From NCBI GenBank assembly GCA_044231675.1, contig CM094669.1, positions 2,993,643-3,057,642 of the forward strand: a DNA stretch of 64,000 bases, read 5' to 3'. This document shows positions 341 to 49,415 of the stretch, in pieces. A model generated the notes under the pieces. It was not told the origin of the DNA. It worked only from the letters and a program-made list of their open reading frames with translations, and searched no databases. Position numbers and translations under genes: made by a program. Each line of letters starts with the position of its first letter. The first letter of the stretch is position 1. The stretch is from Synchiropus picturatus (lineage: Eukaryota).

Positions 341-1079
341 GAGGGGAGGGGGTGGCTCATCAAAAGGGACTGTGATCTTTGCTGTCTCAGTGACATCGTT
401 GGTCTTAGTTGAATAAACAAAACTCAAAACAATGAATAAACAAAACATGAAGCGAGAATAAACTCACCTGGCTTGTAACATGAAACCGCGGAACACATTG
501 TTTGCATAAACAAGCCGCAAACATGAGTTCAAATAATGGTCATAATAAGGTGCTGCAGCACCCTTCCGTTTGGCTGCAATAGTGAATAATATTGAGTGAA
601 ATTAAAGTTCAAATCCTAAATGTGGTAAATAATAGAACACATTTCATTATTGTAGTAGGAAACATAATAGAATGATACTCTGAATCATAATTATTATGAA
701 AACAGTTCATAAAATTATAAACAATCATCAAACGCTCAATACTACCACACCCAACTGATACTGCAGCTTTCTCGGATCCTGTACCGACAGTACAGTCAGG
801 TCAGTCACCGGTGTCCACGCCTTGCACTTGTGACCACACCCCCCGTGAAGTCAGTAGAAACCTGGAAAATACAGAAATAATGGAAGACATTGAAGCAGAG
901 AGCCAGTCCCTCTGCTCCTGAAGAAGGAGTCCACTTCACATTCAGAATCATTTATTTTAATTTAAAAACTAATCAGAACATAGGACTCATTATTTATTTC
1001 AGCTTCACTTGTGCGGCGAGGGAATAGGAAGTGACCATCGTCAAGTTCTCTGATGTCATGGGTCATGGCCCATTGGCCC

Positions 1080-24407: not shown

Positions 24408-26020
24408 TCAGGCGTCGATCCGGCAGCTAAGGTCTCGCCGCAGGTGGACCTGCAGGCCGCTGGCACTGGTGAAGTGGCGGGCGCAGCGGCCGCAGCGGTA
24501 CGGTCTCTCTCCGGAGTGCGTGCGCTTGTGCTTCTTCATGGTGTCGCTGTCGCTGAAGCTGCGGCAGCAGTGCGGGCAGCTGTACGGACGCTCGCCAGTG
24601 TGGATCCGCAGGTGGCGCCGCAGGTTCCCGCGCTGGCTGAAGCGTTTGGAGCAGATGTTGCAGCGGTGCGGCCGCTCGCCGGTGTGCGTCCGGAGGTGCC
24701 GCCGCAGGTCGGCCGACTGAGCAAAGGACTTGCAGCACCAGTCGCAGGCGTATGACTTGCGCTTCTGCTCCAGGTGGAGGCGCAGCGCGGCGGTGTGGCT
24801 GAACACCTCAGCACAGCGGGGGCAGCGTGGGACAGCGGCCACTGAGGCCTCCTCTTCAGATTCTGGAGTGTTTCTGCCCACGTTCCCGACCGGACCGGAC
24901 CACTGAGAGCTGTCTTGATCCAGCTGCCCAGGAGGGGGCGCACTTCCGACTGGGCCTGTTCCTGGTTTCAGGGGCTGATGGGGCGGCGTGATGAACGGCA
25001 CCTGAGGAGAGGACGACCCATTGACACACCCCTGGTGGACAGCAGACTCTTCTGTCTTCGGTCGGTCTCCGTGGAGAAACAAAACCGACGTCCGGACGCT
25101 CACGTCCTGACCAGCAGGGGGCGTTAGTTTGTGTTCCTCAGGTTCCGTTTTGACTATGCACACTGTTGAATCTCGCCTGTCACCATGAGGTGAAGTCAAG
25201 GCCACCTGAGGGGACGGGGATGTTCTCACGAACGCCTCCTGGTGGCCGTCTGGCGTCACCTGCCCAGGTGCATCTCGAGAGGCTGTGAGGAACTGGGTCG
25301 TAGCTTCGGCCAAGTTGGGGGTTCTGATAAGGTGAAGAGTTGAATCGGGTTCCTCCAGACGATGGCTCCACTGCTCCGGTGCTGACGCTGCAGAAGTGGA
25401 CCGGCCGGACTCTGGACAAGGACCACACACACTGAATGACTGGGTCGGCACAGTAAAAGTAAAGCACTTTCAGAAACGCACAAATGTAACAAAGTCGTTT
25501 TTACTAATACAAATCTTAAGCTAACTCAACAATTATAATATTTCGGGTTTAAAATAAAAGCGCAACGACGTGAGTTTCACGTAGACAGCAATATACGTTG
25601 GCTCGTCACGTGATCTCATGTTATTGACGCGTGAAAGTGGAAGTGAAACGGCAGCACCTTTATCTTGCTATTTGGACATTGTGTTTCGTTTTCAACCCCC
25701 CGGAATGAGACCGAACATAATTTCCTCAAACATCACGCGGGTTGATGATCCTAAAATCGGTGGTTGCTGCGAACACCTGCGTGGAGCGTTAAACGAGGCG
25801 CAAAGTCTGTGAAGTTCGGAGCGGCGCACTCACTCAGCCAGCGGGTCTCGGCCTCCACAACTTCCCGCAGCTGTCGCCGCAGACTCTCGCTCTCCTGCCG
25901 GGCCCGCTCCGTCTCCTCCCGATACTCGGTGACCGTGTCCTCCACCACGGCCAGCACCTCTTTGACCACCGCGGCCAGCCGCTCGGTCAGAAACGAGCTG
26001 AGCAGCTGCAGTCGGGTCAT
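24408..26020 (-). CDS. C2H2 zinc-finger protein (fish-type ZNF with a conserved N-terminal 'LQLL..FL.ERL.AA..E' exon). Exon 1 approximately 25834-26020; main exon approximately 24408-25439 carrying six C2H2 fingers.
   Basis: Exon 1 reads [51 protein letters not shown].., the N-terminal motif shared by many teleost ZNF genes. The large exon ends with six tandem fingers: [129 protein letters not shown]. The exact exon 1 donor and exon 2 acceptor are not resolved (phase ambiguity). No specific orthologue is assigned. Confidence 0.7.
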
Positions 26021-26644
26021 GATGGCGACGGAAGTGACGACAGCTCGAATATGACAGTGGTTGGCGCTTTCTGAATAAAAGCATGAGCGTCACTGTTATA
26101 TGTTCTCAGGAGTATAAATGTGTTGAATTGTTGCATGAACAGTCATTGATAATGTGTCTGTGGTTAAAAGACTTTATGTGACTGTTCATGGCCATAGTTT
26201 AAAATTAAACAATTATTATCGTCTATATTTCAATTGTGAATGAAAACGGTCGTTCAGTTGCGGATAAAAGTTCACGTCAATTTAACGATGAAAACTTCGG
26301 AAGTGCAGTGGAGGAACGCAATTGTACGCGTTGCCATAGTTACCGACGTCTCTCGTGATGAGAGAGGAAACGATTTTAAAATCGCCAAGTCAGGGCAACA
26401 AATATCGCGAATGGGATTAAAACGATGGACTTTAGCCCAGCTATGATGGTAAAGCATCAGAAACGAGTTCAGAATGGCGAGTGAAAGAAGTCACGTGGTT
26501 GCGGACCAGGTCTGGGACGATACCATCGCCACACGAACCGGATTTCTGCCCGGAATCGTGACATACCGACGAGCCAGGACACGGTGAAAGCCCGACACTG
26601 GTGAGCACACGCGCATGCACATCCATGCTCGCTCTCGCTCTCCA

Positions 26645-26706: not shown

Positions 26707-27308
26707 CTCCATCTCTGGTGCAGTGGGCTGCAGCAGACTCGCTGCGTTACCACTCTGGTTCTCGTGGTTTTCAGAATCTGAGGCTTCAGGCTTTGGCAGA
26801 TCGAACCTGCTGCTGCACCAGAACATTCCATCTCTGCTGAGACGACAGGATTTACCGAACACCCCGGTGAGTGGGACGCTGCGGAGGGTGTGTCTGTCTG
26901 TGTGTGTGTGTGTCTGTCTGCATGTGGCACCGTCTAATGTCATGTGACCAGTAGTAAAGGAACCGCAGACACCATTTGTGACCGTTTGAGTGTTTGGGCT
27001 CATTTTGTATGTTTGTTTGTGCTGCTGATGCTGGAGAAACGTTTCCATGACAACAGTCTTCCCATCGATCACTCTCATTATCGCCGGACTCATCGCACTC
27101 ACTCGGCTTCCTCCTCCAGATGAGGCTGCTGTGAGGTCAGGTGATCCTCTCAGTGATCACCCGGTGACCAGCAGCCTCGGTGAGGCCCTCAGTGTTTGCT
27201 GTTTCTCGGGCAGGGTCTTGGCCAGCGTGTGTCGGGTGACGATGGACGAGGCTGACTTTTCCTAAAAGCTCATCTTCGACGCTCACCGGTCCCTTACTCC
27301 CACACCTG

Positions 27309-28088
<780 letters not shown>

Positions 28089-29177
28089 ACATCGCTCGGT
28101 CATCACTTCCTGTCACCTGACCATCACCAAGCTACACCACCGACATCCTGCTGCTCTCGCACCCTGTTGCTGAACTCTGACCTCTGTCATGTGACTGAAC
28201 ATCTGGATGGTACTTGCTGTGTTTCTGCTGTTGAACCAGAAGCATGCAGCTCAGCACCGCCCTCTGGAGGTCGCCACCTTAACACCCTCGCCAAACTGTA
28301 TAGTTTGGCTTGTGCTATTTAGCAACCATTAGCATGCTAAATGCTACACACCAGTGCCACAAAAGTACTCTTCTTAAAAGTTTACAAATAGCTAGCATGA
28401 CTAAAACGCTGCTGCAGCAACCCTCACGTTCACTCGATCACTTAAATCTAGCTCGAATGTGTCGTCACATTTTCATGAAAATGGTTCGTGGTGCTCGGTC
28501 TGGATGTTGCTGCCAACAAGTATTTACAGGAAACTAAACCTCCTGCATGTTTACATCATTTATATCATGTAGCTTTTTTGACAGCGATGCTAACATTTGT
28601 AAAAAAAAAAAATACAGTCTAAAGAAGGAAAATCCTCCATCTTTGTTTACCAGTCTCAGGCGTGGAACCTGACTGCGCCCCCTGCAGGCTGTACGTAGCA
28701 TGTTTACTAATTCATTATGCAAATGACAGAGCAAGCCTTGACCCCAGCTCTTAAGACTGCTGCACCTGCTTGAACGCTCTTCCTGCCCACGGTTGCCTGC
28801 TGCCTTTTTGTTAGTATCCTTCTCTTAAGCACTTTTTTCCTTTGCTCAAAATCCAGTTTTTTATATGAGAAAACTTTGTACTTTTACAATCTCTTCCTCT
28901 TGTATGCACAACGCTCGCTGTCAGCTGCTTCCTGTGACTCGGGCGGGTTGTTGCATGTAACATTTATCCACAAAGACTTGATGAAATAAACGTTATCTGC
29001 AAAACCCTCAATGTTTTTGTTCCAACAGACTTGGAAGCCGATATTTGCATGAAGCTCTACATATGCTTTTATTTCAGCTGGACAGGCACAGGTGAGAAAC
29101 AGGTGACAACACCTGCTGACACCACAGCAGTGACCAGTTAGCAGATGCGGTTTCGCATTTAACTTCAAGACTTCACT

Positions 29178-32100
29178 TCACTGGCCGGTGCCGGGCAGCG
29201 CCCCCAGGAGGCCGTTGGCGGTGGTAAACAGGTTGATGGGTGCCGACCCGTCTGTGATGAGGGTGGACTTGAGTCCCAGAGATTGGAGCATCTTCACCTG
29301 CAGGGGGCAACCACACATTAGACTAGTTGTTTTCAGACCCTCGCCCCCCTCCTTCCGCCCCTGGCCAGGACACACACCTGCATTTCGGGTCCGGCCCGGG
29401 CCATCTCCTTCAGTGTGTCACTGCCCAGACTCTCCACGAGCTCCCGGAACTTCTTGGCCTCGATCTGGGCCAGACGCTGCTGTTTCTCCACCTCAAGACA
29501 GTCCAGGTCCTTCTTGTAGCTGAGCTCCTGCTCCCGGGCCTGAGCCAGGCGCTGCAGTTCTGCCTCCTGCTCCACAGACAACCCCCCTGTCAGGGACATG
29601 CACCAGAGCCCTGCTGGAGCCAACCTCGGCCGGAACTCACCGCCTCGATCCGCTGAGCTTCCGCTTTCAGCTTGGCCTCATTCACCGCAGCTTCGCCCTG
29701 AATCTTCGCCGCCTCCGCCCGAGACTGAGCCTCGGCCTTGGCTGCACCGGTGCTCTCCACCGCCGCGCTTGAGGTCACATGACAACCAGGCATGAGGACG
29801 CTTACCATGTAGTCATTTAAGGTTGACTTTGACACCATCAGTCACCTGAGTGCCTCCAACTCAAGCAGCTGCTTCCTGGCGCGCTCGGCCTCCGCCTGAT
29901 CCGTGATCCTCTGGCGTTCCAGCTTTCCGCGAGCTTCCTGTTCCAGACGCTCCGCCTCATGACTGCACACACACACAGTCATCGACAAACACATAGACTC
30001 ATGCAGTCCAATCGTGTGTGCTTACCGGGCCGCGGCCTCCTGGGAGTTGGTGGTGATCTCGATGGCCAGCTGTACGCTCTTCTGCAGGGCGTCGCGGGTC
30101 CTCTGGTCGACCGGCTCCACCGACTGAATGTCGACGCTGCTGATGACCAGATTGTTCTGGGGGAAGTGGAGCCGAGGACGCACGGACATCTTCTCATCGA
30201 AGCCGAACACGGCCGAGCAGATGATGCGGTTGGAGTTCTGGGGCGGGAGCGCGTTAGCGTTAGCGACCGTGCCGGTGGGCGGGTGTCTTGGGCCATACCT
30301 TATGAAAGTCGTCAAACTGCACAGAGGCCACTGCGCCTCGGACCCGGGAGGCGATGGCTTTGCAAGCGTCACCAACAAAGTCTGGCACAGAGAAGAGCGT
30401 TGCAGCTTCGGCAGCGTCCGAGCGCTGAGGAACGTCAAAGTGCCTGTGGAGGCAGAAACACCAGCACACGCCAAGATCAGCGCAGTGCGGCCATATTGGG
30501 CATGTTTTGTCATAGTTTAGAGGACCAAGTCTTTACAAGCCACCTTCTTCTCAAGGCATTTTGACCTGTCCTCACAAGATTTAAAGGGTTAAAAACACAA
30601 GTAAAAGCAGTTAATGTAATTACCGGACTATAGAGTGCACCGGAATATTAGCCCCACCCACTAAATTTCAGAAGGAAAATGGATCTTGTTCATACATAAG
30701 CTGCAGGGGTTTGCAAGCTGTAGGTTCAGTGGTGCTGTCTGCGCCGAAGAAAGGTCAGTGGTGGACCTGGCTAAAAACACTTCTCAAAACTAGTTTTGAA
30801 AACAGGCTCCGGCATCAAGACTGGCTCAAGAAACTGTGCAATGTTCGGAACTTGAATCATGAACTCCTCACATCTTTTACACAATAAAGCCCTCAAAATG
30901 CACAGTTTTTGCCAGCATGCCCCAAGTTCCGACACCACTGCCGGCCTCAGTAGCTGCTTCTCAATTCCAGACCTCAAGGAGATGGACTTTGTTGACAGAG
31001 CTGCGGACACGCGGGCGAAAACACAGCATTTTGAGCACTTCATGGTTAAATAAAAAGCGTCGTATTTCATCGGTTTCATCGCCTCTGATTTCATCTGATT
31101 TCGGCCTGTAAAAATCAGAGCGTGCGCGTGCATGTGTACCAGTTGTAGCTCAGCTGCAGCTGCAGCCGGGCGTGGTCAGCCGTCTCAATGGTGATGATGT
31201 CCGTGCAGAAGTCCGGTCCCAGCAGCAGGCAGATGGCTTTAATCACGTTGGGTCGCTTGGGTTTATCTCCAGACAGGGACAGAACAGTGAACTGCTCGTC
31301 CGGGCCGAGCATCACCATCTCGGGTCCAAACACCACCCTGAGGAGCAGGGCAGAACCGGGTCAACGGCCCAGCTCAGTCACCCTGGAAGGCCAGGACTCA
31401 CCTCGCTTTCTTCTCGCGATAGTCATAGACCTGCACAGCAGCGTTGTGCGGGACCCTGTAGGAGACCACCCGGGTCCGGTCTCGCTCTACCACCTGGGGG
31501 GCCCGGTTGCGGTTCGAGCGGTCAGCCAGGGGATCTTTCTGGGACGACAGCAGCTCCTCCACATTGTCAGGGAGGATCTTCTGCCAGAGCTCCTCGTCCT
31601 GTGTCAGCATGTAGGTGTGACCGATGACCGCGCGCACCTGAGAACAGGAAGTGATGTCACTGGTGTTCAACAGCAGCTGCCAACCGTCGCCGCCGCACCT
31701 TGCCAGTCTTCATATCTCTGACGTAGATTCCTTCATTCTCGTCAAGCGGGATGGCCGTGCGCCGCAGTACCACCTCCACGCAGGCAGGGGGCACATACTC
31801 GATGGGCCCCCGCAGCATCCAGCGATCTCCTGGGCGCCGCAGGATGCCACGCCGGGAGCGTTTGCTCCTGGCCTCCTCTTCCTCCTCTTCCTCCTCCTCT
31901 CCATCATACTGACAGAGAGAACGGGGGAGAGACGGGAGGAGGGGGGAGAGAAGGTTCAACATGGTGATGCATTGAAGTGAGGGAGGCGGGGAAGACGGAA
32001 GAGGAGGTGAAGGAGAAAGAGGAGATGAAGGAGCAGGAAGAGATGAATGGGGGTAGAAGCCGATCTGGGACAGGGGTGAGGAGAGAAGGAGGAAGAAGAA

Positions 32101-33853
32101 AGGTGGAGGAGAAGCAGGGGTCAGGGATGCTTCCATGTCAGTGAGATTTGTCCTCAGGAGAGCTCCAGTTCCACTCTTCTCGTGACCTGAGATCCTTCTC
32201 GCTCAGTCCAGGAGATGTTGCATAGTCAGAAAACGTGAAAAGGTTCAATAGTGGGGTCTCAGTTCTGGATGCTTCGAGTTTAGGGTTAGAAAGGGACACG
32301 TGGACCGCGCCATTACCCTGGTGGAGATGAGGTGGCACCCGGAGGTCGGCCCACACCACGACTCACCTGGTCGGTGAAGGCCTGGATGGCCCGCAGCACC
32401 AGCCCCTCTTCCTCCGACAGCACGTAAACATCCTGAATCCCGGACTCCAGCGTCTCCCCGGGCTGCAGGAAGAAGGAGCGCTCGCCCTGCGCACAGTGAT
32501 GACATCACCGCTCAGTTTCCGGGCCTCTTCGGGTCAGCAGGCTGGCTCACCTTCACCACCCTCTTCTGGCCCAGCTGGGGCTTCCCATCTGGCCCGACCG
32601 GGTCCAGGATCACACAGTACTGACGGCTGCTCAGCGTGGTCACGTTCACCACGTCCACCACTTCCTCTGACACCGACGGGATGTGGGCCTCGCTGTCAGC
32701 CATGGTGACCAGCCACTCCTCTCCGGTGCGTCGCTGCCGCCCACCGCCATCTTTGAAGGGACGCAGGGCGCGAACGTGCAGCGCTTTCTAGAGACGGGCG
32801 CCCGTGTGAGTCCACACCATCGGCACATCGACCGACACAAGTGCGACACCGACCTTGTCTGTCAAGATGAAGGCGTTAACGATGTCGATGACCTCCTCGT
32901 GGGCTCCAGGCAGGTACGCCCCCACCTTCCGGACCAGCCACTCCTCACCTGACACACCGTGAGCTGGTTAGCTCTGAGTCACATGACCCGCCGCTGCCGG
33001 CGCTGAGCTCACCGGTCACTCTGGACACGCCACTGCGGTCCACCCCCTCTTTGCGTGCACGAAGTCTGATGGCCTGATGCTCCCGGATGACGGTGGCCTT
33101 CACCGTCTCCAGAACCGCCACCTCCTTCCTGGGGATGTATGTCCCTGCAGCACCAGAATCACAGTCACATTTGGCACCAGAAAACCAGGGTCAGGTCACG
33201 GCACACACCTGGTCCCTCGAACAGCCACTCGTCACCAGCCACTCTGGTCTCGCCACCGCCGTCCGCGAAGTCCAGCAGCGCCTGCAGGCGCAGCGCCGTG
33301 TCCGGGAAGACAATCTGGAGCGCTGTCACCGCCTGTTGCACACACAGAGACGCTCAGACAGACTGGCCCACCTCGCCAGCGGAATGCAGCTCTGGTACCT
33401 GCTGGATCTCCTCTCCCGGGTAAAGGGGGAACGGGTCTTGGGTCAGGCGGATCTCCAAGTCTGCATGACGAAGCTTGGCCTGACCGGCCTCGTCGAAGAG
33501 AATCTGGCCGTCTGCGTTGCGAGCGGCTGGGTTGAGGACCACGCAGTAGTGTCGCGGCGGGACCATGACCATCCGTACCGGGGGGAACAGAACCCTGGGG
33601 AACCAGACGCCTCGCTTAGCTCAGCCAGCTAAAGCAAGCTTGTTTGTCGTGGGGCGAAAGCTCGGCCATGTTTGATGACCTCATCATGAGAATTAACCTC
33701 TGACCTCTCATTGTCTTGGCGGATGTAGGTGAGCGGGCCGATCTGCACCCGGGCAATGTTGGTGTTCTGGTCCAGGACATGGATGTAGTGGTGGGGGGGG
33801 ATGCGGATGATGGACTCCCCCTCGTAGCCGGGTCTTCCCGTGCTCTTTGACAT
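29178..33853 (-). CDS. mvp: Major vault protein (MVP), about 15 coding exons. Last exon 29178-29297. ATG approximately 33853-33851 ([30 protein letters not shown]...).
   Basis: Long collinear identity to human MVP across many exons. N-terminus: [38 protein letters not shown]; [55 protein letters not shown]. Vault repeats: [46 protein letters not shown]; [11 protein letters not shown]...[43 protein letters not shown]; [30 protein letters not shown]...[25 protein letters not shown]; [61 protein letters not shown]. Shoulder and cap-helix: [33 protein letters not shown]...[38 protein letters not shown]; ...MARAGPEMQ|[32 protein letters not shown]...*. Most internal exon coordinates are not given. 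Confidence 0.95.
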
Positions 33854-35780
33854 TGTTGACACTGGGGTTGAACAAACACCAGGATCAGACCGGGTCACCT
33901 GACCTCGGCAAACACAAAGTTGAGAGATTCATCAGTTGCACTCACACCAGAGTGATCGAGTGAATCGCTGAGTGGCAGCTGACCTCTGCCCTCCTCCTGA
34001 CACACCTGAGCTGATCACCTCACCTGTCTGTTCAAACAGCCCACGCCTCTGCTGCAACACTGTGCGTCACCACCACCGCTGTCACTCAACAGAGTGAGAG
34101 ACTCCGGCGAGAAATGGGACATTCAAGGGCTCGGTTGTCATTTAAATGTAGACGCTTCGCACTGTCACACGCAGTTAAACTTTTAAGGTGGTTAACTTAA
34201 TAAAACCTGCTCGTTGATATCAAATGGTTTTTTTTTTTGTTTTTTTAGCGTGATGCGCTGCGCAGAAAGGCCAGGCGAAGCGGCACTAAATGTAATTTAA
34301 TCATCCATCCTGTTGGTTTGGTTTTGCAGCGTTCGGAACCACTTCCTGATGTTCCGGGCCAGGTTTTTGACGGCATCACTTCCTGGTATAAACTGCGAAC
34401 TTCGAACCGGACGATAAACCTGCACAGAAACTCTTCCCACCTGCTTTTATTTGATTTGAAGCAACAAGAACTGAGTTTATTCTTCTGTTCCTAAAATGTC
34501 TGCAGACAGAAACATCTGGAAACGGCAGAGTCCCGTGCGTTTCTTTCGATTCTCCCGATGACGCACATGAAATGCGGACACTCATTAATTATAGTTTGAT
34601 TCTAAACTCGCCACGAGAAAAGTTCCTTGTTGCGCCTGGAAACATTTCAACCCAAGTCCAACACTGAAGACAGGAATCGCATTTTTCCATGAAGCACGCC
34701 TTACACTCACAGGTTTTCCAGCGGAGTTCAGTGGAGGTGAAGCGTCAGTTGTTCGCCGGGAGGCAGGCGATTCACACCGACCTCAAGTTGCGCAGCTCCG
34801 GGTAAAGAAGACGGGCTGGTGGGCGTGGTCGGGGCGTGACGTCTTCCCGGAAAAATCATGACAGGTCACGTGGTCTGCGGAATGCGGTTCTGCTGCGTCA
34901 CGCACGCACCACTTGTTTGAGTCAAAACCCGCCCCAGACCCACGCAAAAACATAAGAATACGAAATTACCATTTTAGACCATAAAAAGGCACGTGATACT
35001 TGTACATATTTGTTCATTTCCCAGGTCACCGTGGAAACGGTAGACACAGCTGCCACCAGCGGGCGGCGCCAAAGTGACAAAACAGCTGCCGTGAAATCTT
35101 TTCTCTTTATTCATGAGGACGTAAATAGAGTTATATATTAAAATGTGTAATTATGACGTAAATATTATCTTACACGAGTGGACAGCAAGGGTCACGTGAC
35201 TCAGGAATTGTATGAAAACACACAGACAAAATGTCATACAAAGAACTTTGGTTGATTCTCTGCTTGGTTACTTGAGCTGTTTTGTATAAAATTCTTTAAA
35301 AACTTCCCTTTAAAAACTGGATTTTCACAAAACTCACTCAGACGATCGATAAACATCTGAAGTTAAATAAAGTAGAGTTGGTCGTTAGTAATTTCAGTCA
35401 GACATCATGTTAAAAAGCAAATAAAATGATGAAAACAGAATATACATGAGGAAACTCACCAGTTCAGCTGAAGAAGCATTTCTATAAATCAAGCTCTATA
35501 AATCAGATGTCAGTCGCACTGTAGGGTTAATCAAGTGGATCAGTTCTCGGGCATCTATTTTGACTTGAGCACCAGTTGGTCGCCGGGACAGGAAGTGACA
35601 TCATGCAGCAATATGAAGACAACGCTTGTCTATAAAATAAATATTTGCATTCTTGTATAAAAGGACGGAGCTTGTTCTGGATTAATGTGCTGACAACACA
35701 CTGGCGCCACAGGGATCTGCCCACGCACATTTTCGGCATCAACTTCCTGAGTTCGATAAGTCTGTTTCTCCGAAGGACGG

Positions 35781-38700
35781 TCACTCCAACATGGCGTCCA
35801 GCTGGTCAGCGAGGTCGTCAAACATGTTCCCGATGTCGTCCAGGATGTTTCCCGCCGACTTGACCACGTTGGCCCTGCAGGTGACAACAAATGTTAGAGC
35901 TGCACTCGAAGGTGGTGAGGTTGGTGCTCACCCTCCCGAGTCGTCCAGGGTCCTCTCCACCGCCTTCAAGGCCTCGGCCAGCGAACTACTGGTTTGCTCC
36001 AGTCGCTGCTGCACCACTGTGTCCCCTGGATCCAGCTGAGGAAGAGGGGATGGGCTGGGAGACGGGGGGGCGGGAGAGGCAGGTCCGCGGCAGGGAGACG
36101 GTGGAGAACTGAAGGCCAGACTCTGCACCAGACTGACTGTCACTGGCGGGGCAGTGATGCCTCCTGCAGGGCAGAAGTTCAGGTTCAACAAACAGATGTC
36201 GCTGCTGTGGCTCAGGTCAAAGATCATCTCAGAATAACCTGAGTCAACAACCAGGTGGTTACCTTGAGCTGCCAGCAGACTGTGTCTCGCTGGTTTGGGA
36301 GCGACGACAGGAGGTTTCGGGGACAGCGGAGGTCTGACGCTGGACTCTGTTGCGGCACTGTTGGGACCCTCACCAGGTCTTGGGCTGACCCTGTCCTGAG
36401 ACTCTTCCCCTTCCCAGCAGGGTGAGCCGTCCTTGTCTTTGGTTCGGTGACGCCGCTTCACCGTGTCCGACTCCGTCAGATTAAACTCTGGGTTCCGGGT
36501 GGCGAGCTTCTCCAGTGGCTCAAGCACGTCCTCTGCCCGCGGTGGCGCCGGTGCTTTGGGCCGCTGCTTGATGGTCAGGTTCCCCTCCTCAGCGAAGGGA
36601 ATGCACTCGCTGGAGCTATGCTGTGGCGAAGAGGATCCTTCGATGCGGACTTGCTTGGGTTCCTCCTCCTCAGAGTCAGACTTGACCCCGCGGTCCAAGC
36701 GGGAGGCGTCGGTCTGGACACAATCGCTGTTGATCCGCCTCCTGGGCCCGCCCACCTCGGACAAGGACGGTTCCTGCTGCTGAGGGTCCGTTTTTTCCTC
36801 TTCGTCGAAGCTGCTCTCCAGAGACGCTGCACTGTTCTGGCCACTTCCTGGGCCGTCCGTCACAACACCCCCGGGGGAGGCGGAGCTGCTGTCACTCAGG
36901 TCGACGCTTGCGCCGCTACTCACGGAGCTCAGCCTCTTGGGTGGAGGCGGAGGAGGGCCTTTCTTGCGAGCGCGCACGGCGAAGGACTGGCTCCGACCCA
37001 CCCCGCCACCGGACTTCTCCGGACTGGACTGTAACCGAGCACCGTGACTCCGGTTGGGCCTCCGAGTCAGCGTGGCATAGGACGGCAGGTTGGCTGGAGG
37101 AAGGGCCTGCTCTTCGTCATCGTCGTCTGGCTCTCCGTCCGACAGAGCGTAGCGGCTCGCGCTCTGACTGCGCTTCTTGGGCGGTGCAAGCGCGCCGGCG
37201 TGGTGAGACTGCAGGTAGTTAAAACCCTTCGGTGCTGGAGATGCGAGGGGGGAGGAGCCACAGGAGCCGGCGAGTCTGGGTTTGGCGGGCAAGGCCGGGT
37301 ACTTGAAGACCGTTGCTGTCCCCAGAGGAACCTGCTTGGCCCTCTGGTCCCAGCCCTCAGGGAGGCTCCGCTCCTTGGCAGGACTTGAGTCCAGACTCTC
37401 CTGGGACCAGCTGTGGGGGCTGACAGAGGCAGTGGGAGGGTCCTGGGAGCGGCCAGATCCTCTGGAGCGGGAGTCAATGCTGTCCTGGCTCTGAGAGAGC
37501 CCTACCGCCTTCTTCATGTCTTCGCAGCCGGCGTAGCGGCTGCACATGGCGGCCTGCAGCTCAGAGCTCAGCTCACTGTCCTGGAAGGTCAGCATCTGCG
37601 GGGTGCGAGGGGACGGCGCATCAGCGCCCCCTTCTGAAGACTCAATGGCCACCAGGTGAAGCGAGCCAGGGCCTTTGCGCCGCAGAGTGCCGTGACCCGA
37701 CTCCGCCTGCCCAGCTGCCCGATGGATGTCGCAGAGCTTCTTCACTGCCAGCATCATCTTCTTCTGGTGACCTGCAGGGGGCAGACTTTCACTACATGGC
37801 GACCGGTCGAAAATTCAATCTCAGGCAACCGATCCTGACCCAGTTTGGTGACTCCGATCTCCTGCAGGTCCTCCCAAGTCAGGTCCTTGACTATACCAAT
37901 GGTGTCATAGCCATTCTCCGCCAGATGCTGCTGGTACTGCGGCAGCCCAATAGAGCAGAGCCACTCGCCCAGGTCTGACTGCGGAGGAAGCAGAACCTGG
38001 TCAGGTGCGACGTCGGCGCTTCAGGCCGAGTGGGTCTCACCGGGATGAAGTCCGGCAACCACTCTGGAATGTTCAGGTTGTTGATCTCGATGGAAATCTT
38101 CTTGCGGTGACCCGGTTTGGTGACACCAATGGCGGTCAGGTCCTGAAGCACAGCGAGACAAGGTCACACAGGGCTGTGAGGACACGTGTGTGTGTGTGTG
38201 TCAGGTGGGAGATCACCTCAGGCGTCATGCGACTGATGGTTGGGACGTCGTATCCAGCATTCAGGAAGTTCCTCGTGTATTGATCCAGTTGGAAGTCGCT
38301 CAGCCACTGATAGATGGCCTCGGCATCCTGCCACACACACACTATTAGACGCAGTCCTGGCAGGGTGCCGCATCTCCTACCTTGCCCTCCAGCAGATCCC
38401 CGGGTCGCACACTCTGCTGACAGAAACTAGGATCCGCTGCTCGCTGCACCGTCACCGTGGACCTGCGGGCAGCACCACCTGCAGGGCAGGAGGAGGGTCA
38501 GCTGCTGGAGCCCAGAGTTCTGGGTCCAAAAACCTTACATACCAGTGGGAGGGTCCTTGTCTTCAGGGCCCAGAAGCGGGGACGCCGACTGCAATCGAGA
38601 CCGAAGGAGTAGTTTGTGTTGGACAAGCCTGAGTCCAGGGTTCTTACCTTGCTGATGTGACCCGGGGTGTGCGGGAGTCCGTTGGTGGGGTTGTTGCTCT

Positions 38701-41700
38701 CGCTGCTCTGTCCACTGCCGGCGCTGCGAGTGCTGCCCACACTGCCGGTGCTAGCCACACTGCTCCGGTCACCTGCTGACCCACACAAGGGTGAGGCAAG
38801 ATCCAGAGGGAGGGGGGAGGCCTCTAGGTGGCAGCAGACCAGGAGGGAGCAGGGGGGTTAGTTGCTGCGCTAGCAAAGATGCGGTCCTGGCGTCAGCAGA
38901 ACCACAAACGTCTGAGGAGAGGTGCCACGTCTACGTGTCTGGTGAAGCAGGAGCGACGCGCTTCGAGCAAGCTTGTCAGCGCCATCTAGAGGTAAAGCCG
39001 CTCTGTTGTGCCACCTGTTGATGTCGGTCAACAAGCAACTGTGATGTCATGTCTCGCCATTCGCTAAAGCACCACTGCCGGAAACGCTTTTGTTCTGACC
39101 CATTATACTGTCGGACCTTTAAACAGTAAGATATTTCTTGAGAAACTTCTGCTTCTTTCAATGAGGCCCCCTGGTGGCAGAAGCCAGTATCTCGGGTGCA
39201 GGTTCAGCCCGAAGCGGTGGGATCTCACGCAGTTCTGACCCGACTCATCGAGACGACTCAAAGCCACCAAGCCCACAAAGCCAATCAGACGGGTCTTCAG
39301 TGGTGATGCACAGAGGGTCCGGTTGAGTCAGGTCGAGATTTGCAGGGAGTTGAGCTTCAGCCCAGCGGGTGGAGGGGCGTCGGGTCTTACCCTGACACGA
39401 GTCCCTGAGCACCCAGATGTCCTGGTACAGACACCTGGACTGGGACATGCGGCTCCACGTCGGACCTGACGGACCTGACGAACACACAAACATGAGTTCT
39501 GGCTGCAGGTCCAGAGGCCGGACTCCCGTGGCTGAGGGCTTAGGGACCACTGGGCCCAAGAGGAGGTCTGACCTCTCACTCACACACGTGCTCACTAAGA
39601 GTGTGTGTTAGTCATCAGAGTGTGTGTGTGTGTGTGTGTGTGTTAAAAGCCTGTGTGAGAGAATGTCGGTGGGTACCTGCGTTAGTGGCGAGGCCGTTGG
39701 GGAGGGGCACAACCACGTTGGTGGGGGGGACATGGAGGGAGTGGTCAGTGAGGGGGGCGGAGCTCAGGCTGGCAGTCAGGGGGGATCTGGTCAGCTGACG
39801 CTGGGGGGGCAGAGAGGCGTGCCGTGATAAAGTCCCGCCCCCTACAGGGTGAAGGGGGGGATGGTTAATGGACTGATTAGGAATGAGGTCAAAGGTTAAG
39901 TTCTGATGAGGTGGTGCATGGCAGGGCTTCGTGCATGAGGACATGGCGCACCCCGGTGAGACTGACCGTTACGCCTGCTGATGACCTCCACGATGGACGG
40001 CGGGAAGAAGCCCACCCTGTCAGTTCCTCGCTGGTCGTGGATGTGGCCCTTCCAGCGTCCATCCGCGTGCTGCTCCAGCACCTGGGGAGTCAGGAGAATG
40101 GAGCCTGGGGTCTTCCATGTCGCAGAGCCAGGGCAGAGGTCAGAGGTCAGCGGTCTCACCGTGATGACATCACCGGCACGGACGTTCAGCGCCGTCGGAT
40201 CGTGAAGGTTCCAGAAGTCCTTGAGCGCGCGGACCTGCAGCACTCCGGTTGCTTCTGCACCACATACACAGAGGGAGGGGTCATGAGCGGCAGGGTCACG
40301 TCAGGGATCAGGACGGTGCCGTCGCCACCTCGCAGCAGCTGCTTGATGTCCCTGCTGGCGTGTGAGGTGGTGAACTGGTTGACGATGTCCAACGCCGTCT
40401 GGTTGTAGGTGTTCCTGATGTTGACGTCCACGCCGGCCTCGAGGAGAAGTCGCACCACCTCCGTCTTGCCGTACAGCGCCGCCTCGTGCAGAGCGGTGCC
40501 GGACTTGGTGGTGGAGTTGATATCGATCCCAGCCTTCAGCAGCAGCCTGCACACACAGGCAGGTCAGCGTGGAGGGGGACGACCAAACACGTCAGCCGGA
40601 CAGTTCTCACAGGATGACGTCTTTGTGGCCGTTGCGAGCGGCGAGGTGAAGCGGCGTGGTGAAGGCCGAGTCGGTGGGCTCCTTCCTCTCGCCCTCCAGC
40701 AGCGCCACCACCATGTTGCTGCTGAGCAACAGCTGCGCCACCTTCAGCCTTCCGAACTCGCACGCCAGGTCCAGCGGCGTCTTCTTGGACTTGTTCACTA
40801 GGCAGGGGTTGGACTGGTGCTGTAGCAGCATCTCCGACTGTCTCAAACACACACGCACACTGTTCTGAACCCCGGAGTGCATGGATGTGACTTTGCCGGG
40901 TCAAGGTTGAGGACTTACCACCTCATAGTGACCGTACTGCGCGGCGAGGTGCAGCGGGATGTGGCCATCCAGGGAGACCGCGTTGACCGCCGCACCTGAA
41001 CGCAGCAGCATCAGCACCGACTCGGCCTTGCCCTGCCAGGCAGCGTAGTGCAGCGGACGCATGCCTGCACACACACACACAGGTGACGGTGAGAGAGTCA
41101 TGCTCACTTGTGGAGACTCCGCCCACTTACCATTACTGTCCCTCACGTCCACCGACGCCTGGGCGTCCAGCAGCGCCGCCAGCAGCTCCGACGTCCCGGT
41201 GAGAGCGGCGTGATGTAGAACAGAGAACCTGGCGGCAGGAATCAAAGGTCACGTGACCAATCGAGAGAAGAAAAGGCGCAGTTCTCACGTGACCCAGCAG
41301 GGGAACCGTTGTGCGACTGCGGTCATGGCAACCGACGCCGCAGCTATTCCATCGCTGGAGTTGTGTTTGTGTGTCCATAAGTTCTTGCCTGTGTGTGAAT
41401 GCTAGCACCGCTTTGTGTATGTGTGTTTAAGAAAGCTGTGTGTGCTCTCCAGCTCTGAGTGTGTGTGTTTAGTCAAGAGACACCAAGTTACACAATGGCC
41501 CGCAGAGAAACTGGGACTGACAAGGCAGCACACACCACACACAAAGCCCCAGATCCACGCAGACCCAGCGACACTCACCCGTCTGAGTCCTGGTAGTTAA
41601 TGTTGAGCCTCTTGCTGGAGCCGAGCAGCTCTGGAAGAGAAGCAGGTCACATTGTGAAGCAGAGGAACCGGCTGAACCATCACTGGAGTCCATCTATAAT

Positions 41701-43229
41701 AATAATAATAATCTATCTCATAATATAATCTAATCTGAGGACCCCCCAGCTAGCAGCTACAGGTCAGGATGCTGGAGCTTATGTTGCATAGGTGCTATTA
41801 AGGAAGTTATTCCGGAGCTGACATTGTGAGCGGCGACCTGTGCCGGCTGTTACCAGCCAGTGTTGACATTCTGAGGTCAAAGGTCAGAGAGCTGTTTGCT
41901 GGGGAGACTGAACAGGAAGTGTGTTCTGGTTCATGATGGAGAGTCGCTGGACATGAATGTGATGCCATCGTCCTGATGGCTGAACTCCGTGTGAGTATAT
42001 GTGCGGGTCTTTAATGCTTTTCTCTCTCTCTCCTTGTGCTCAGGGCAAGCAAGCCGTAGAACTCTGCATTCCATTCTTCTGACATCATCACCCCCGCCCC
42101 CTTCCTTCCTCCCCCGGCTTCCTTCACAGACGGCTGGGAATCGAACTAGAGAGTCAGAGGAGGACGAGTCGTTCTGCTGATCCACTGTATTGTGTGGGCA
42201 AAGCAGCAGCAGGGGATTGTGGGTATTGAGTCTGGCCTCCTTGAAGTTTATTGCATACCGACTCATGTAAACACAAACATTTCTGCACACACACTTGTGC
42301 ACTGAGACACATACACTTGTTGACTCACACAACTCGCATTCACACACTGACCCCAGTCTCGCACATAGACACACATGTATCTCTATCCTTGTGGGGACCT
42401 CTCATTGCCATAACATTTTCCCAGCCTCTCACCCTAAACCTAACCATCCAAAACACATGACTAACCTAAACCAAGACTCGGAACTAAAGTGGAATGCAGT
42501 TAAAATCACACAGTTGCTATGAAGTCTTCCTCCTCAAATTGAGGCTTAACCTGATAGAGTCCAGCCAAATGTCCCCACAAAGTCATACGGTCCTCACAAG
42601 GACAGTGTTAATCTGTTGTCAAGGATTGAAGTAGGATAAACAAGCCCCCACACACAGAGATATAGAGTGAAAGCAAAGTGAAAGTGGAGTCATCCCTCAG
42701 TCACATGACCTGAGGTCACGTCACGTGACTTCATATTTGTAAAGAAAAGTGACAAAAGAGAAAAGATGGAACATCGTTACGTAAGGAGGCACCGGGGGGC
42801 AGGCGGGGGGAGTGGGGAGGGGGAGGAGAGTGGATGAAAGTGGAGGAAGAGTAGAAAGAGGACAAGGAAAAAGTAGCATGGAGGAATAGGAGGAGGAGGA
42901 AGGGGAAGAGGTGGAGGAGGAAGAGCAGAGTGAGGAGGAAGGAGACATGGAAACTGGCCTTCCTACTTTCACAATCATATTTCACAGCCCAGTTCAAACA
43001 CTTGACCTCTGACCCCAGATCCGTACAAGATCCCATGCACAGACATCAGAATCTGGACCATCATCTGAGTCGTCTCCAGTGAGCCATCACTGGCAGGTGA
43101 GCCATTTGAGATGAGTCACCCGCCGAGTCACTTACTGGTTCTGCCGGACTTGAGTTTGGTCAGAAGCCTCTGGGCGGTCGGCAGGTCTCCGTTCTTCACT
43201 GCCTGCAGTAGCTCTTGCTCCTTCCCCAT
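35781..43229 (-). CDS. caskin2: CASK-interacting protein 2 (CASKIN2): ankyrin repeats, SH3, two SAM domains, a long Pro/Ser-rich exon and a conserved C-terminal domain. Resolved exons: exon 1 43136-43229; large exon 35932-37772; last exon 35781-35874. Other exons lie about 38000-41650.
   Basis: Exon 1 reads [31 protein letters not shown]|gtaagt. ANK exons (40186-41245, 41590-41640) read [78 protein letters not shown]; [38 protein letters not shown]...[16 protein letters not shown]; [72 protein letters not shown]. These match human CASKIN2 better than CASKIN1. SH3 (39896-40243): [43 protein letters not shown]...[18 protein letters not shown]1 and SAM2 (37796-38342): [50 protein letters not shown]...; ..[16 protein letters not shown]|[19 protein letters not shown]-terminal exon: ..DSGG|[30 protein letters not shown]. 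Confidence 0.9.
39621..39644. repeat. (TG)n microsatellite in a CASKIN2 intron
   Basis: tgtgtgtgtgtgtgtgtgtgtgtg. Confidence 0.95.
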
Positions 43230-44893: not shown

Positions 44894-46956
44894 TCAGAGG
44901 GAGTAGAGCTTGAGCTGCTCCTCCACCTCCCCCTCCGTCACGCCCCCCAGCGCCTCCTGGTTCTCCCGCAGCAGCAGAAAGATGGCGGCCAGCTGCTCCT
45001 GCTGGACCCTGAGGACCACAACATTTAAGTTAGTTCGACCTGAGAAGCTCCCACTCCATGTTCTCCTCAGGAAATCCACCGGTCAGGTGGCGTGGTTCTG
45101 TCAGCTCGGTCGACCCAGGACTGGACCAGCTAGCGTCCGAGGACGGACCTCGGATGAGGATCCGCACCTCTGAATGAAGCACCTACGAGTGAAGCGGCTG
45201 CGGTGCTTCAGTCAGCCGTAGGAGGGCGCCGTGAACAAGGCGTGAATGTGACCAGCAGGTGTCGCTGTCCGGCGGACGTGAACACACGAGACAAATCACT
45301 TCAACTGTTTATTGGCTGAGATTGAACCACAAATAAACACCTTCATTCATCCTCCCTTTTGTGGTTATTTTCCCTCGAATTTCTTCCTTCACAAATTCAT
45401 CATTTACATTTTAAGATAAATTTCATTGACTGAAATGAATGGCATCTCCTTTACTTCATAACCTAAAGACAAAATGCTCTATTGATACTGAATATTTTGA
45501 ATGAAAATGACTCAACACAACTTATTTTTTCTTCTTGTTTTCAGATAATGAAATAAAACCTGTAAATACATTTGTGTGTCTTCATAACGCTTCAAGCATC
45601 ATCAGATCTGAAAGAGAAAAAAAAACATAAATATTTGTTATTCACCAAACATCAAACAAAACCATGTATAAAACATGACCCAGCAGTAAAAACTCACCAG
45701 GAGGAGGCTGTTAGCAGGCAGCATGCTTGTCATCATTAGTTAGCATGTTAGCAGCAATACGTCCTTCCTTGTGCGACAGGAACCGTCGGTGAGTCTCGCG
45801 GCGATCGAGATGGATGCTAACGTTAGCGGCGACTAGCACCAGGCCGAGTGTAAAACCACCAACTCAGCAGTGAGCGTGAAAATATTCACCGAACGAAACA
45901 GCATAAAAGTAATCCTGATTCATCATCAGCACCGGAGGAAATGCTGAGTCATAGGAAGTTATTTTCCCCCAAATCCAAATGTGAACTCGCTGACTAATCA
46001 CTTACTTTTTAAGATATGAAAACCATAAATAATAAAGTAGCTAAAACTGCTGACGGATGAAAAAGAACTGCAAAGTCATTGTTCACTTTAAAAATATATA
46101 TATATATAAAGCGCTGACTCATCGTTCACATTGAATCAGGTGGACAGCGTCACGGGACATCAAAGGAGTCGTCTGATGTTTGACCTGATGAGCTGCGGCC
46201 AGATTGACAGGAGAATTAGGAGATTAATCAGGATTAAGCAGCTGCCAGTGGAACAGCTGGCCGTCATGTCAGTGGCCAACCTGAGCAGCAGGTAAGGGAT
46301 GACTCGGGTCAGTGGGTGAGGATGACTCACTGGAGACTACACACTGAACAGGGGTCAGGGGTCACAGACGACACTGGGCACCTTACCAGCGCAGTGTCGC
46401 GCTCGGACGATGAGGCGGTTACAGAGACGTAAGGTCGGAGGTGAACTCGACCCTGCAGAGATAAAGCTTCATGTGGAGCACTGCGACTGTGAGGCGTGAC
46501 AGCCAGGCAAGAACTCGGGGTGTCACACAGGAAGTTAAGTCAGTCGGGTCACACCAGGTCATGAGGTTCAGGCTGACCACAACATTCTTGTTAGCACCAG
46601 CAGGAGGAGCAGAACCCATTCAAGCACTGTGTGTGTGTGTGTCTGTGTGTGTGTGTGTGTGTGTGTGTACCTCTGTTCCTCCATCATCTCCTCCTTCGTC
46701 ATCATCGTCTGCAGTTTATTCTGCTTCTTCCCTGGAGTGAACATCACTTTGTCTTCAGCCTCACCTGCCAAAGACACAACATCTCGTCTGAGACACACTT
46801 TATTGGGACTCTATTGAGTGCAGCGTTTCTCTGCTGGTAGTTACTGAACAGAGCAGTGTGTTGGTGTTTGTGTCTCTCGTGTGTGATGTCATCGGGTGAA
46901 TCGAGTTGATCAAATGGACACCAGCTGAAGACCAGATTAAGGGTCCGACAGATGGC

Positions 46957-47005
<49 letters not shown>

Positions 47006-49415
47006 TTGAATTCATCTGTTTCTGGTCCCGGTGGGGTGGCAGGAACTTCTTCTGCTGTAGAAGACACGCTTGGTTCCGGTACTGGGTCTGATCCTAACTG
47101 GATCTTTGGTTCAGATTCTGGGAGGGTAATGGGTGCTGCTTCTGGTTCCGGAGCATGAATAGCTTCTGTATCCGGGCCTTGTTCCGGCATTGTTAGTGGC
47201 GCAGACATAGGTCCAGATTCCAGTTCTGATGACTGCTCAACAGACATGGGCTCTGCTAAAGAGGTGGATTCTGGTACTGGGACAGATTCTGTCACTGGAT
47301 CTGATGCTGTGAAAGACGCTGGTTCTGGTGCTGGGACAGGTTCTGGTTCCGGTTCTGAAATGGGGACCAATCCGGTCAGTGGTTCTGAAACAAGGACCGG
47401 TTCAGTCACTGGTTCTATTGCTGGAAATGGTTCTGGCACTGGGACAGATCCTGGTTCTGGTGCAGGTACTGTTTTCAGTACTGGTTCTGATGCTGGTTCT
47501 GGAACAAGGATCGATTCAGCCTCTGGCCCAGGTGATGGGACAGAAAATGTTTCTGGGAGAGATGTTAGTCCTGGCACAGGGACAGACACTGGTTCCAGTA
47601 ATGCCTCTGAAACTGGGGCTGATTCAGTCACTGGTTCTGGTGCTGGCACAGACACTGGTTCCGGTATTGGGACAGATGCTAGTTCCGCTGCTCGTACAAC
47701 TATTGGTTCCGGTACTGGAACAGATTCTGGTACAGATGCCTGGACAGATAATAGTTCTGGTTCTGGAGCAGATGCAGGTTCCAGTGCTGGGGCAGGAACT
47801 GATTCCCGTGCTGGGACAACTATTGGTTCTAGTACTGGAACAGATTCTGGTTCTGGTACTGGGACAAAAGCTGGTTCTGGTTCTGGAGCAAATGCTGGTT
47901 CTGGTGCTGGGACAACTATCGGTTCTGGCACTGGAACAGATGATGATTCTGGTTCTGGAGCATATGCTGGTTCCGATGCCAGGACAACTATCGGTTCTGG
48001 TACTGGAACAGATTCTGGTTCTGGTACAGATGATGGTTTCGGTGCTCGGACAGGTGCTGGTTCTGGTGCTGGGGCAGAAACGGTTTCCGGTGGTGGGAAA
48101 GATATAGGTTCTGGAGCAGATGCTGGTTCTGGAGCAGATGCTGGTTCTGGCACTGGGATAGATTGTGTCTCACATACTGGCTCTGGTGCTACAGCAGAAA
48201 CAGGTTCAGGTGCTGGGACAGATAGAGGTTCTGGTTCTGGAGCAGATGCTGGTTCTGGCTCTGGGATAGATTGTGGCTCACATACTGGCTCTGGTGCTAC
48301 AGCAGAAACAGGTCCAGGTGCTGATGCTGCGGCCGGTTCTACTGTGGGTTTTGGCTCCTGCCGAAAGACAGAATAATTTCTCGTCACAACTAAAGACCAT
48401 GAGGAAAACAAACCACAAATGCTGTTTGGTTCTGGTCCAAATTTAGAGCTTCAGCTGACTCGCCTGTCGCGGTCGACCTATGACCTGAACTGTCACCCAC
48501 AGACCTCGTTAAAGCAGCCGGTGCTGACAGAAATATTCTGGTCCACTTGACAGTCTGGTCAAGTGTTCCTGTTGGTCTGTTTTCATGGGACCTCATATGG
48601 ACCTGTTTGGTCCTGGTGCTTCAGTGACCACTGTAATGGATCTCTGGACACCAGATGTCACTGAGACCTGCTTCCCTTATGTTGGTCATGTGACAGTGGT
48701 GCGTAAATATAGGAAGCATGTTGGGCCCAATATAGACGCTTGTAACCCGGGGGGCGGGGTTAGTGATCGCCACGCCCACCTTCTACTAAACCTAGCTGAT
48801 CATTACTCAGCAGATTTACAGCTAATTAGCATTTTAGCTTCATTTCTAATCGCAGTTGAACAGCAACGTCATGGGGAGATTTCACCAAAGTGCAGTTGGA
48901 GAATTCCTGGGCCGCTAACGTCCACATTTCCATGATGCAATTGGAAAGGAGTTTTTTTGTTTTGTTTATATTTTGCGAAGAACAGACCAAACTTTCCATA
49001 TTAATAATAGCAGAACTAATAAACGTGTCCACAGCGTTCATCACATGACTCGCAATGCTTCATTCAGAATGAAATAAGCGCGTTAATTCAGTTTAAATAA
49101 CATCGAGTTCTGGGTTTGTTAAGCCCGTCTAAGCTTTAAGCGCACAAAAAAATAAATACATTAAAAGTTACTTTCTATAAAGACTTTTAAAGTATTTTTT
49201 AAATACTTCACAAGTCTCATAGACCAGTACTTAAAATGTGTCGGGTGTCTGACCTGGACCGGAGGCGCTCGGGTCTCCACAGGTGGTCTGCTGTCACTAG
49301 TGCGTCCGCTTTTGGGTTTGTCATCGGTACCGGTTCTTCTGCCGAACCAGGACGAAGCCACCACGACTGCAACAACGGTGAAGAGGAGCGCGGGAAGCAG
49401 CAGTTCAAGCTCCAT
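44894..49415 (-). CDS. mxra7: Matrix-remodelling-associated protein 7 (MXRA7-like), a single-pass membrane protein. Exons: 49254-49415 (signal-anchor/TM), 47004-48357 (very large Pro/Glu-rich tandem-repeat exon), 46671-46764, 44894-45008.
   Basis: Exon 1 reads MELELLLPALLFTVVAVVVASSWFGRRTGTDDKPKSGRTSDSRPPVETRAPPVQ|gtcaga (human MXRA7: MEAPAELLAALPALATALALLLAWLLVRRGAAASPEPARAPPEP..). Exon 2 follows acceptor tctttcggcag|GAGCC and is 1354 nt of (PEP/PAP/VPV)n repeats, ending ...EEVPATPPGPETDEFK|G gtgtgt. Exon 3 reads ..EAEDKVMFTPGKKQNKLQTMMTKEEMMEEQ|R. Exon 4 reads VQQEQLAAIFLLLRENQEALGGVTEGEVEEQLKLYSL*. The last two exons align to the human MXRA7 C-terminus, ..YSPGKLRGNQYKKMMTKEELEEEQRTQKEQLAAIFKLMKDNKETFGEMSDGDVQEQLRLYDM. 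Junction phases are consistent (0/1/2). The gene is adjacent to JMJD6 as in human 17q25.1. Confidence 0.8.
46629..46668. repeat. (GT)n microsatellite at the 5' end of the MXRA7 intron 3 (exon 3 donor is gtacacacac... on the minus strand)
   Basis: gtgtgtgtgtgtctgtgtgtgtgtgtgtgtgtgtgtgt. Confidence 0.95.
46958..47003. repeat. (CA)n microsatellite immediately 3' of MXRA7 exon 2 (the intron starts gtgtgt... on the minus strand)
   Basis: cacacacacacacacacacacacacacacacacacacacacacacc. Confidence 0.95.
47030..48350. repeat. About 1.3 kb tandem repeat (18/36-bp periodicity; units like GGTTCTGGTGCTGGGACA) forming MXRA7 exon 2
   Basis: Plus-strand text repeats ...ggttctggtgctgggacaactatcggttctggcactggaacagat.... 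All three plus-strand frames are open over hundreds of codons (ORFs 47246-48376 and 47328-48107), in addition to the minus-strand coding frame. That pattern is the signature of a stop-free tandem repeat. Confidence 0.85.

Follow-up and report, generated by a model that had tools for sequence, protein, structure and literature searches.

How do genes whose human orthologues lie on different chromosomes come to stand less than 2 kb apart? The question is raised by a 64,000-nucleotide stretch of the dragonet Synchiropus picturatus (Callionymidae; NCBI GenBank assembly GCA_044231675.1, contig CM094669.1, positions 2,993,643 to 3,057,642 of the forward strand), hereafter the window, in which a block of genes of human 16p11.2 type ends with MVP and a block of 17q type begins with CASKIN2. 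The two genes are arranged in tandem on the minus strand, and the 1.93 kb between their coding regions (33854-35780) contain the entire switch. An initial annotation made from the sequence had localized the switch to the short stretch between the MVP 5′ end and the CASKIN2 3′ end (33900-35790), which agrees with the interval from the CASKIN2 stop codon to the MVP ATG (Table 1), and had attributed it either to an ancestral vertebrate linkage later split in tetrapods or to a fusion in the teleost lineage. The location holds, but for the origin we favor a different explanation: that the interval marks a true evolutionary junction between synteny blocks, left by one intrachromosomal rearrangement or several after the Polymixia split on a chromosome that already carried both gene types. 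We put the probability of this reading at about 75%.

The block switch itself is real, the identities of the genes on both sides having been checked by Pfam, PDB and homologue matches. Human cytobands are used here as established knowledge, with the assignment of MVP, PRRT2 and FAM57B, and of these three only, to 16p11.2 taken from a paper (PMC3484866). On the left, SH2B1 carries Phe_ZIP and SH2 domains, the latter scoring 206 bits against SH2B1, 186 against SH2B2/APS and 149 against SH2B3; SPNS1 scores 663 bits, versus 536 for SPNS2; SGF29 scores 288 bits against human SGF29 (Tudor domain); the NFATC2IP-type gene has a Rad60-SLD domain; and NUPR1 is a p8 match. The same block holds a protease that we call only trypsin-like, from its Pfam Trypsin domain, and a CD225 gene whose product has a C-terminus that we take to be PRRT2-like; a CD225 gene occupies the equivalent position in the dragonet Neosynchiropus ocellatus. 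Homologues of MVP and CASKIN2 were compared as the best 120 matches for each, all from euteleosts (percomorphs plus pike and salmonids). All 120 of the MVP matches listed carry MVP Pfam domains, nearly all of the named ones being major vault protein, and the protein assembled from the minus-strand exons of the window is 97% identical to that of N. ocellatus (single exons 96-100%). On the right, upstream of CASKIN2, come MXRA7, JMJD6 (453 bits against the human protein) and a METTL23-type gene with a Methyltransf_16 domain, which is divergent from JMJD6 as human METTL23 likewise is; further on lie CASC3 (Btz domain, 149 bits in a PDB match) and RAPGEFL1 (RA domain nearest to PDB 2dhz, 'RapGEF-like 1', 127 bits). 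The gene list of the initial annotation is thereby borne out, the protease to the level of its Trypsin domain.

CASKIN1 and CASKIN2 are paralogues, at 16p13.3 and 17q25 in human, and confusing one with the other is one way in which the switch could be an artefact, with all genes deriving from one human region; a chimeric assembly is the other. The informative names among the 120 CASKIN2 matches listed are all caskin-2, caskin-2-like or CASK interacting protein 2, beside a few generic hypothetical-protein labels. The SAM tandem of the window gene scores 220.6 bits against human Caskin-2 and 201.7 against Caskin-1, a modest margin in favor of Caskin-2, and the gene's large exon matches Synchiropus picturatus caskin-2 at 92% identity and the N. 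ocellatus protein at 84%. In all species examined the gene upstream of CASKIN2 is of 17q25 type: MXRA7 in the window and in the trumpetfish Aulostomus, and an ST6GALNAC-type gene in Polymixia and Thunnus. Judged by sequence and neighborhood, the window gene is CASKIN2 and not CASKIN1, as had been proposed by the initial annotation, which itself named this confusion as one that would undo its reading.

The join is not an assembly artefact, since it is seen in four independent assemblies: those of N. ocellatus (GCA_044231665.1), the trumpetfish Aulostomus maculatus (GCA_048301465.1) and the tunas Thunnus thynnus and T. maccoyii (GCA_963924715.1 and GCA_910596095.1). The order in N. ocellatus is Caskin→MVP→CD225→p8→SGF29, with a 1.9-kb gap between Caskin and MVP, and the whole interval is collinear with that of the window, end to end, at 77% identity. 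In A. maculatus CASKIN2→MVP are on the same strand, 5 kb apart, and the last MXRA7 exon is found upstream of CASKIN2; neither in this species nor in Neosynchiropus is a gene annotated between CASKIN2 and MVP. In T. thynnus CASKIN2 is followed, after 5.3 kb, by a 288-amino-acid gene model in which MVP exons 1-4, in a diverged copy with 77-86% identity to true tuna MVP, are joined to an Ifi-6-16 domain, and in T. maccoyii the equivalent MVP/Ifi-6-16 model lies ~8 kb upstream of the true 883-amino-acid MVP. The two tuna loci overlap, which places true tuna MVP ~18 kb downstream of CASKIN2. Both genes of the damselfish Stegastes partitus are on a scaffold of exactly 267,689 bp. Nothing was found in support of an artefactual switch, whether by chimera or by misidentification, and with four concordant assemblies, no Ns in the 64-kb window and the case for CASKIN2 made above, we regard it as next to impossible.

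As for the tuna model in its own right, the duplication also takes in ~0.5 kb of sequence upstream of the true MVP ATG, which points to a partial tandem duplication that gave rise to a chimeric gene (87637-92334 in the T. thynnus locus sequence, 1-2141 in the T. maccoyii locus sequence).

The direction of the change is indicated by Polymixia lowei, an acanthomorph outside Percomorphaceae. Its MVP, at 4.36 Mb of CM105254.1, has a TLC-domain gene 8 kb upstream and a CD225 (PRRT2-like) gene downstream; the named homologues of the TLC-domain gene are TLCD3B/FAM57B (several labelled 'ceramide synthase'), and one unnamed sequence scores higher. CASKIN2 lies 8 Mb away, at 12.32-12.40 Mb of the same record, with a Glyco_transf_29 gene (ST6GALNAC-type) upstream and RUNDC1 2.8 kb downstream, followed by RPL27. 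Both flanks of MVP and both flanks of CASKIN2 therefore belong to each gene's own human block. In human, too, MVP is found among 16p11.2 genes and CASKIN2 among 17q genes, and because Polymixia and human share these 'pure' flanks, the CASKIN2→MVP join is by parsimony probably derived and not ancestral. Its origin would then fall between the Polymixia split and, at the latest, the last ancestor that Syngnathiaria and Pelagiaria have in common.

The same comparison speaks against an ancestral vertebrate linkage, later split in tetrapods, as the origin of the junction. Beyond the adjacency itself nothing speaks for this first proposal of the initial annotation; the join is absent in Polymixia, and the paralogue locations given above, on 16p and 17q, suggest when taken together with PMC8040251 that CASKIN1 and CASKIN2 sat on different chromosomes once the genome had twice been duplicated (2R), so that we consider such an origin highly improbable. 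A shallower version, in which the adjacency goes back to the teleost ancestor or further and was later lost in Polymixia, perhaps in other lineages as well, draws some strength from the fact that only one species is clearly negative and that the join, or proximity, occurs in three percomorph series (Syngnathiaria, Pelagiaria and, within 268 kb, Ovalentaria). A secondary break in Polymixia would, however, have had to restore 'pure' contexts on both sides, reproducing the human pattern, and we hold this course of events to be unlikely.

Two flanking arrangements also vary among these fishes. The PRRT2-like gene downstream of MVP is in tandem with it in Polymixia (locus 28512-30488) and convergent in dragonets (window 27300-28100), and the place upstream of CASKIN2 that an ST6GALNAC-type gene occupies in Polymixia and tuna is taken by MXRA7 in trumpetfish and dragonets.

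Whether a chromosome fusion could have left its mark here depends on what the two blocks shared beforehand. MVP and CASKIN2 are on records of identical size in ~30 acanthomorph species, including Polymixia, which indicates that the two blocks were already on one chromosome. Table 1 of Braasch et al. 2009 assigns genes of human chromosome (Hsa) 16 (ATP6V0C, MGRN1), Hsa17 (NSF, SOX9) and Hsa22 (SOX10) to protochromosome e, a pre-duplication chromosome of Kasahara et al. 2007, with the duplicates of those genes mainly on Dre3/Dre12, Ola8/Ola19, GacXI/GacV and Tni3/Tni2 (PMC2839281). Blaker-Lee et al. 2012 traced the zebrafish homologues of 16p11.2 genes to chromosomes 3 and 12 and noted that their order is not preserved (PMC3484866). 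According to Lamb 2021, Hsa17 represents fusions of five ancestral chromosomes, one of which, of 17q21 type, was kept separate in birds and gar as zebra finch 27 and gar LG15, and Hsa17 occupies two cells, 4B and 4C, of one paralogon (PMC8040251). A search of the gar synteny literature, which did not extend to the gar genome paper, returned chromosome-scale statements and none at the level of genes. That 16p-type and 17q-type genes occur together on a teleost chromosome is old and already known, and fusions in the stem lineage of teleosts are the most likely source.

The second proposal of the initial annotation, a teleost-lineage fusion, is thus plausible at the whole-chromosome scale only, where the literature already has it, and fails for the junction. 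To see in the interval the physical scar of a teleost-stem fusion of Hsa16p-type and Hsa17q-type chromosomes would accord with the teleost chromosomes that do combine Hsa16p and Hsa17q orthologues (PMC2839281; PMC3484866) and with the separateness of at least the 17q21-type chromosome in gar and birds (PMC8040251). Yet Polymixia has both blocks on CM105254.1 with the two genes 8 Mb apart, the blocks in the window are themselves scrambled, with 17q25 genes beside 17q21 genes, and the interval contains no interstitial telomeric or other repeat. Since the two blocks shared a chromosome before they were joined, the junction is not the point of a chromosome fusion, and we think a fusion scar very doubtful.

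Under the intrachromosomal explanation that we prefer, an ancestral chromosome would have carried genes of Hsa16p11.2 type and of Hsa17q type from a time before the genome duplication of teleosts, and one or more rearrangements within it would have brought CASKIN2 upstream of MVP in the ancestor of Syngnathiaria and Pelagiaria, or possibly of a larger percomorph clade, after the Polymixia split. In Polymixia MVP precedes CASKIN2 on the same strand, an order that one inversion cannot turn into CASKIN2→MVP; a transposition or several successive inversions would be needed. MVP would have arrived with its own promoter, and the present interval would comprise the CASKIN2 3′ untranslated region (UTR), a few hundred bases of true intergenic DNA and an MVP promoter with a 5′ UTR intron. 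We infer the polarity, where exactly the spacer begins and ends, and what type of rearrangement took place.

Several points weigh against this account. The polarity depends on a single outgroup, Polymixia, together with a human arrangement taken from general knowledge, and the CASKIN2 context was compared in acanthomorphs only. The clade in which the junction arose is bracketed and not pinned to one node. That the genes share a chromosome follows from equal record sizes and not from coordinates, except in Polymixia. In Esox and Oreochromis the 10 kb upstream of the MVP ATG contain no CASKIN2, and in Perca the 10 kb downstream of CASKIN2 contain no MVP. We do not count these three flanks as negatives: the tuna spacing, at ~18 kb, is greater than 10 kb, neither tilapia nor pike shows the MVP promoter module over that distance, and the Perca flank is mostly a 7.8-kb duplicate.

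The duplicate in Perca flavescens contains the last CASKIN2 coding exon, which occurs twice, 7.8 kb apart (77748-77855 and 85572-85679 of the locus), with identical translations; this is either a true tandem duplication or an assembly duplication.

The interval can be divided into predicted parts (Table 1). Between 35780 and 35085 identity to Neosynchiropus is mostly ~80-96%, with a gapped patch near 35400-35500 and a dip to ~70% near 35200-35300; GC content is 32-45% and the CpG observed/expected ratio 0.5-0.9. The plus-strand TTTATT at 35106, which gives the minus-strand poly(A) signal, is the single instance between 34.5 and 35.78 kb. We read this segment as the putative CASKIN2 3′ UTR, with a predicted cleavage site near 35085; the predicted MVP transcription start is just below 34842. 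Identity falls to 58-68% at 35033-34916 and is back up to 82-88% at 34940-34750, and over a 1.1-kb zone (34.1-35.2 kb) CpG observed/expected is mostly ~1 or higher. The conserved promoter module, contained in the stretch of 82-88% identity, has nearly identical counterparts upstream of MVP, 971 bp from the ATG in Neosynchiropus, 3.5 kb in T. maccoyii and 3.4 kb in Polymixia, the blastn match between Polymixia and the window spanning 34874-34814; it was not found within 10 kb of MVP in tilapia or pike. Because the module is also present in Polymixia, where MVP is not beside CASKIN2, MVP appears to have kept its own promoter through the rearrangement, which would confine the junction to roughly 35085-34900. 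Closer to the gene, a GTGAGT donor-like site near 34713 and an acceptor at ~33862, read as ...ccccag followed by TGTCAACAATG, would delimit the 5′ UTR intron, and blocks conserved with Neosynchiropus lie at 34330-34450 and 33941-34063. In human, the MVP promoter lacks a TATA box and carries an E-box and a STAT/GAS site, a resemblance that we offer as a lead only.

Table 1. Coordinates of the interval between MVP and CASKIN2, its flanking genes and other features of the window
Feature	Position	Strand	Description
MVP coding region	29178..33853	-	Many exons; ATG 33853 in second exon; stop 29178-29180
Putative MVP 5′ region	33854..34841	-	Non-coding first exon, then ~0.85-kb intron to acceptor ~33862; predicted boundaries
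Conserved MVP promoter module	34842..34897	-	E-box CCACGTGAC (CACGTG 34867-34872), then TTCCGGGAA (34844-34852, plus strand)
True intergenic spacer, taken as the junction (best estimate)	34900..35085		Least conserved part between CASKIN2 poly(A) signal and MVP promoter module
Putative CASKIN2 3′ UTR	35086..35780	-	AT-rich; minus-strand AATAAA at 35106-35111
CASKIN2 coding region	35781..43229	-	ATG 43229; stop 35781-35783
PRRT2-like CD225 gene	27300..28100	+	PF04505, E = 4e-24; convergent with MVP 3′ end
MXRA7	44894..49415	-	PF25473 MXRA7_helical, E = 7e-20; gene upstream of CASKIN2
Second block switch	54257..54661		METTL23-type stop 54254-54256, CASC3 ATG 54662; 405 bp apart

No open reading frame (ORF) of at least 90 amino acids lies wholly within 33854-35780, and no Rfam family or tRNA was found in the 64-kb window. 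At the junction we found no tandem, dispersed or direct repeats and no notable inverted repeat, a poly-T run apart, nor any transposon remnants; the interval has no telomeric TTAGGG array, and one near-match elsewhere, at 42432, is compatible with chance. The junction itself is without evident function. The window is gene-dense eukaryotic DNA, and the junction is unusually narrow because the dragonet genome, compact in this segment, leaves the MVP promoter only ~0.2 kb away from the CASKIN2 poly(A) signal. This tandem layout of a poly(A) signal and a promoter may be of use for studying transcriptional read-through or insulation in compact genomes.

Within the presumed CASKIN2 3′ UTR, ~1.3 kb upstream of the MVP ATG, a palindrome GTCACGTGAC followed by TCA (35191-35200) is conserved in Neosynchiropus and, instead of belonging to the UTR, may be a distal element that regulates MVP.

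Compared with known systems, the junction resembles evolutionary breakpoints in conserved macrosynteny: orthologues of two human regions abut, the arrangement is reproducible in relatives and absent in an outgroup, and both blocks remain on the same chromosome across acanthomorphs. Unlike such breakpoints, it has left no repeat, segmental duplication or transposon in the dragonet, the only duplication seen being tuna-specific. Protochromosome e (zebrafish 3/12, medaka 8/19) likewise brings Hsa16p and Hsa17q together, with Hsa22q in addition; it is, however, a whole-chromosome statement, whereas the MVP-CASKIN2 join would be a much younger local event. A further likeness is to the zebrafish 16p11.2 homologue set, in which mvp, prrt2 and fam57b are clustered on one or two teleost chromosomes without conserved order, but that study does not describe the Hsa17 neighbors or an MVP-CASKIN2 junction (PMC3484866).

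Taken by itself this is an ordinary evolutionary breakpoint, the chromosome-scale linkage beneath it has already been described, and it has little importance beyond bookkeeping. It does illustrate that a sharp switch relative to the human map should be taken for neither an old linkage nor the site of a fusion unless an outgroup is compared. More tentatively, the CASKIN2→MVP join might be a rare genomic change that marks a percomorph clade (Syngnathiaria plus Pelagiaria, or a somewhat larger group including Ovalentaria), an idea for which we would give rather less than even odds. If true, the clade-specific join would be an independent character for the base of the percomorph tree, which is poorly resolved, and one that is cheap to score as present or absent.

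The window contains a second switch, from 17q25-type to 17q21-type genes, where the initial annotation had placed it, at ~54.3-54.6 kb (Table 1). Neither block keeps the human gene order, so that the window holds several breakpoints and not one. Through old chromosome fusions and the local reshuffling that continued after them, pieces of three ancestral chromosome types (16p11.2-like, 17q25-like and 17q21-like) can thus come together in 64 kb of a compact fish genome.

Some features of the individual genes are recorded here in their own right. The CASKIN2 product has ankyrin repeats, an SH3 domain, tandem SAM domains, a proline-rich region and a Caskin tail at the C-terminus. PF16600, the Caskin1 CASK-interaction domain, appears in the precomputed Pfam lists of teleost caskin-2 products at five loci; mammalian Caskin-2 is usually described as lacking CASK binding. 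In MXRA7, the exon at 46747-48450 (minus strand) is open for 568 amino acids with degenerate Pro/Glu/Val-rich repeats, and the opposite strand is open for 376 amino acids. The repeats have DNA periods of 24, 48, 72 and 108, with a 108-bp unit present twice at 96% identity. The acidic linker of human MXRA7 is far shorter than this 568-amino-acid dragonet exon.

In the left block, a region at ~10580-12500 (minus strand) beside SPNS1 encodes a transmembrane segment, then CxxC and ...STYVNVPPGESAE... (YVNV motif), and is a candidate LAT gene; it has no Pfam match and stays an unconfirmed lead. LAT adjoins SPNS1 in human 16p11.2. Between NUPR1 and the PRRT2-like gene lies a C2H2 zinc-finger gene (24408-26100, minus strand) that the initial annotation did not list; it has at least five fingers and an N-terminal LSSFLTERL... 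motif, and is uncalled in the Neosynchiropus annotation. Reverse-transcriptase-like ORF fragments, apparent remnants of long interspersed nuclear elements (LINEs), occur at 16786-17070 (plus strand), between SPNS1 and the NFATC2IP-type gene, and at ~1-1000 (minus strand), downstream of the protease gene.

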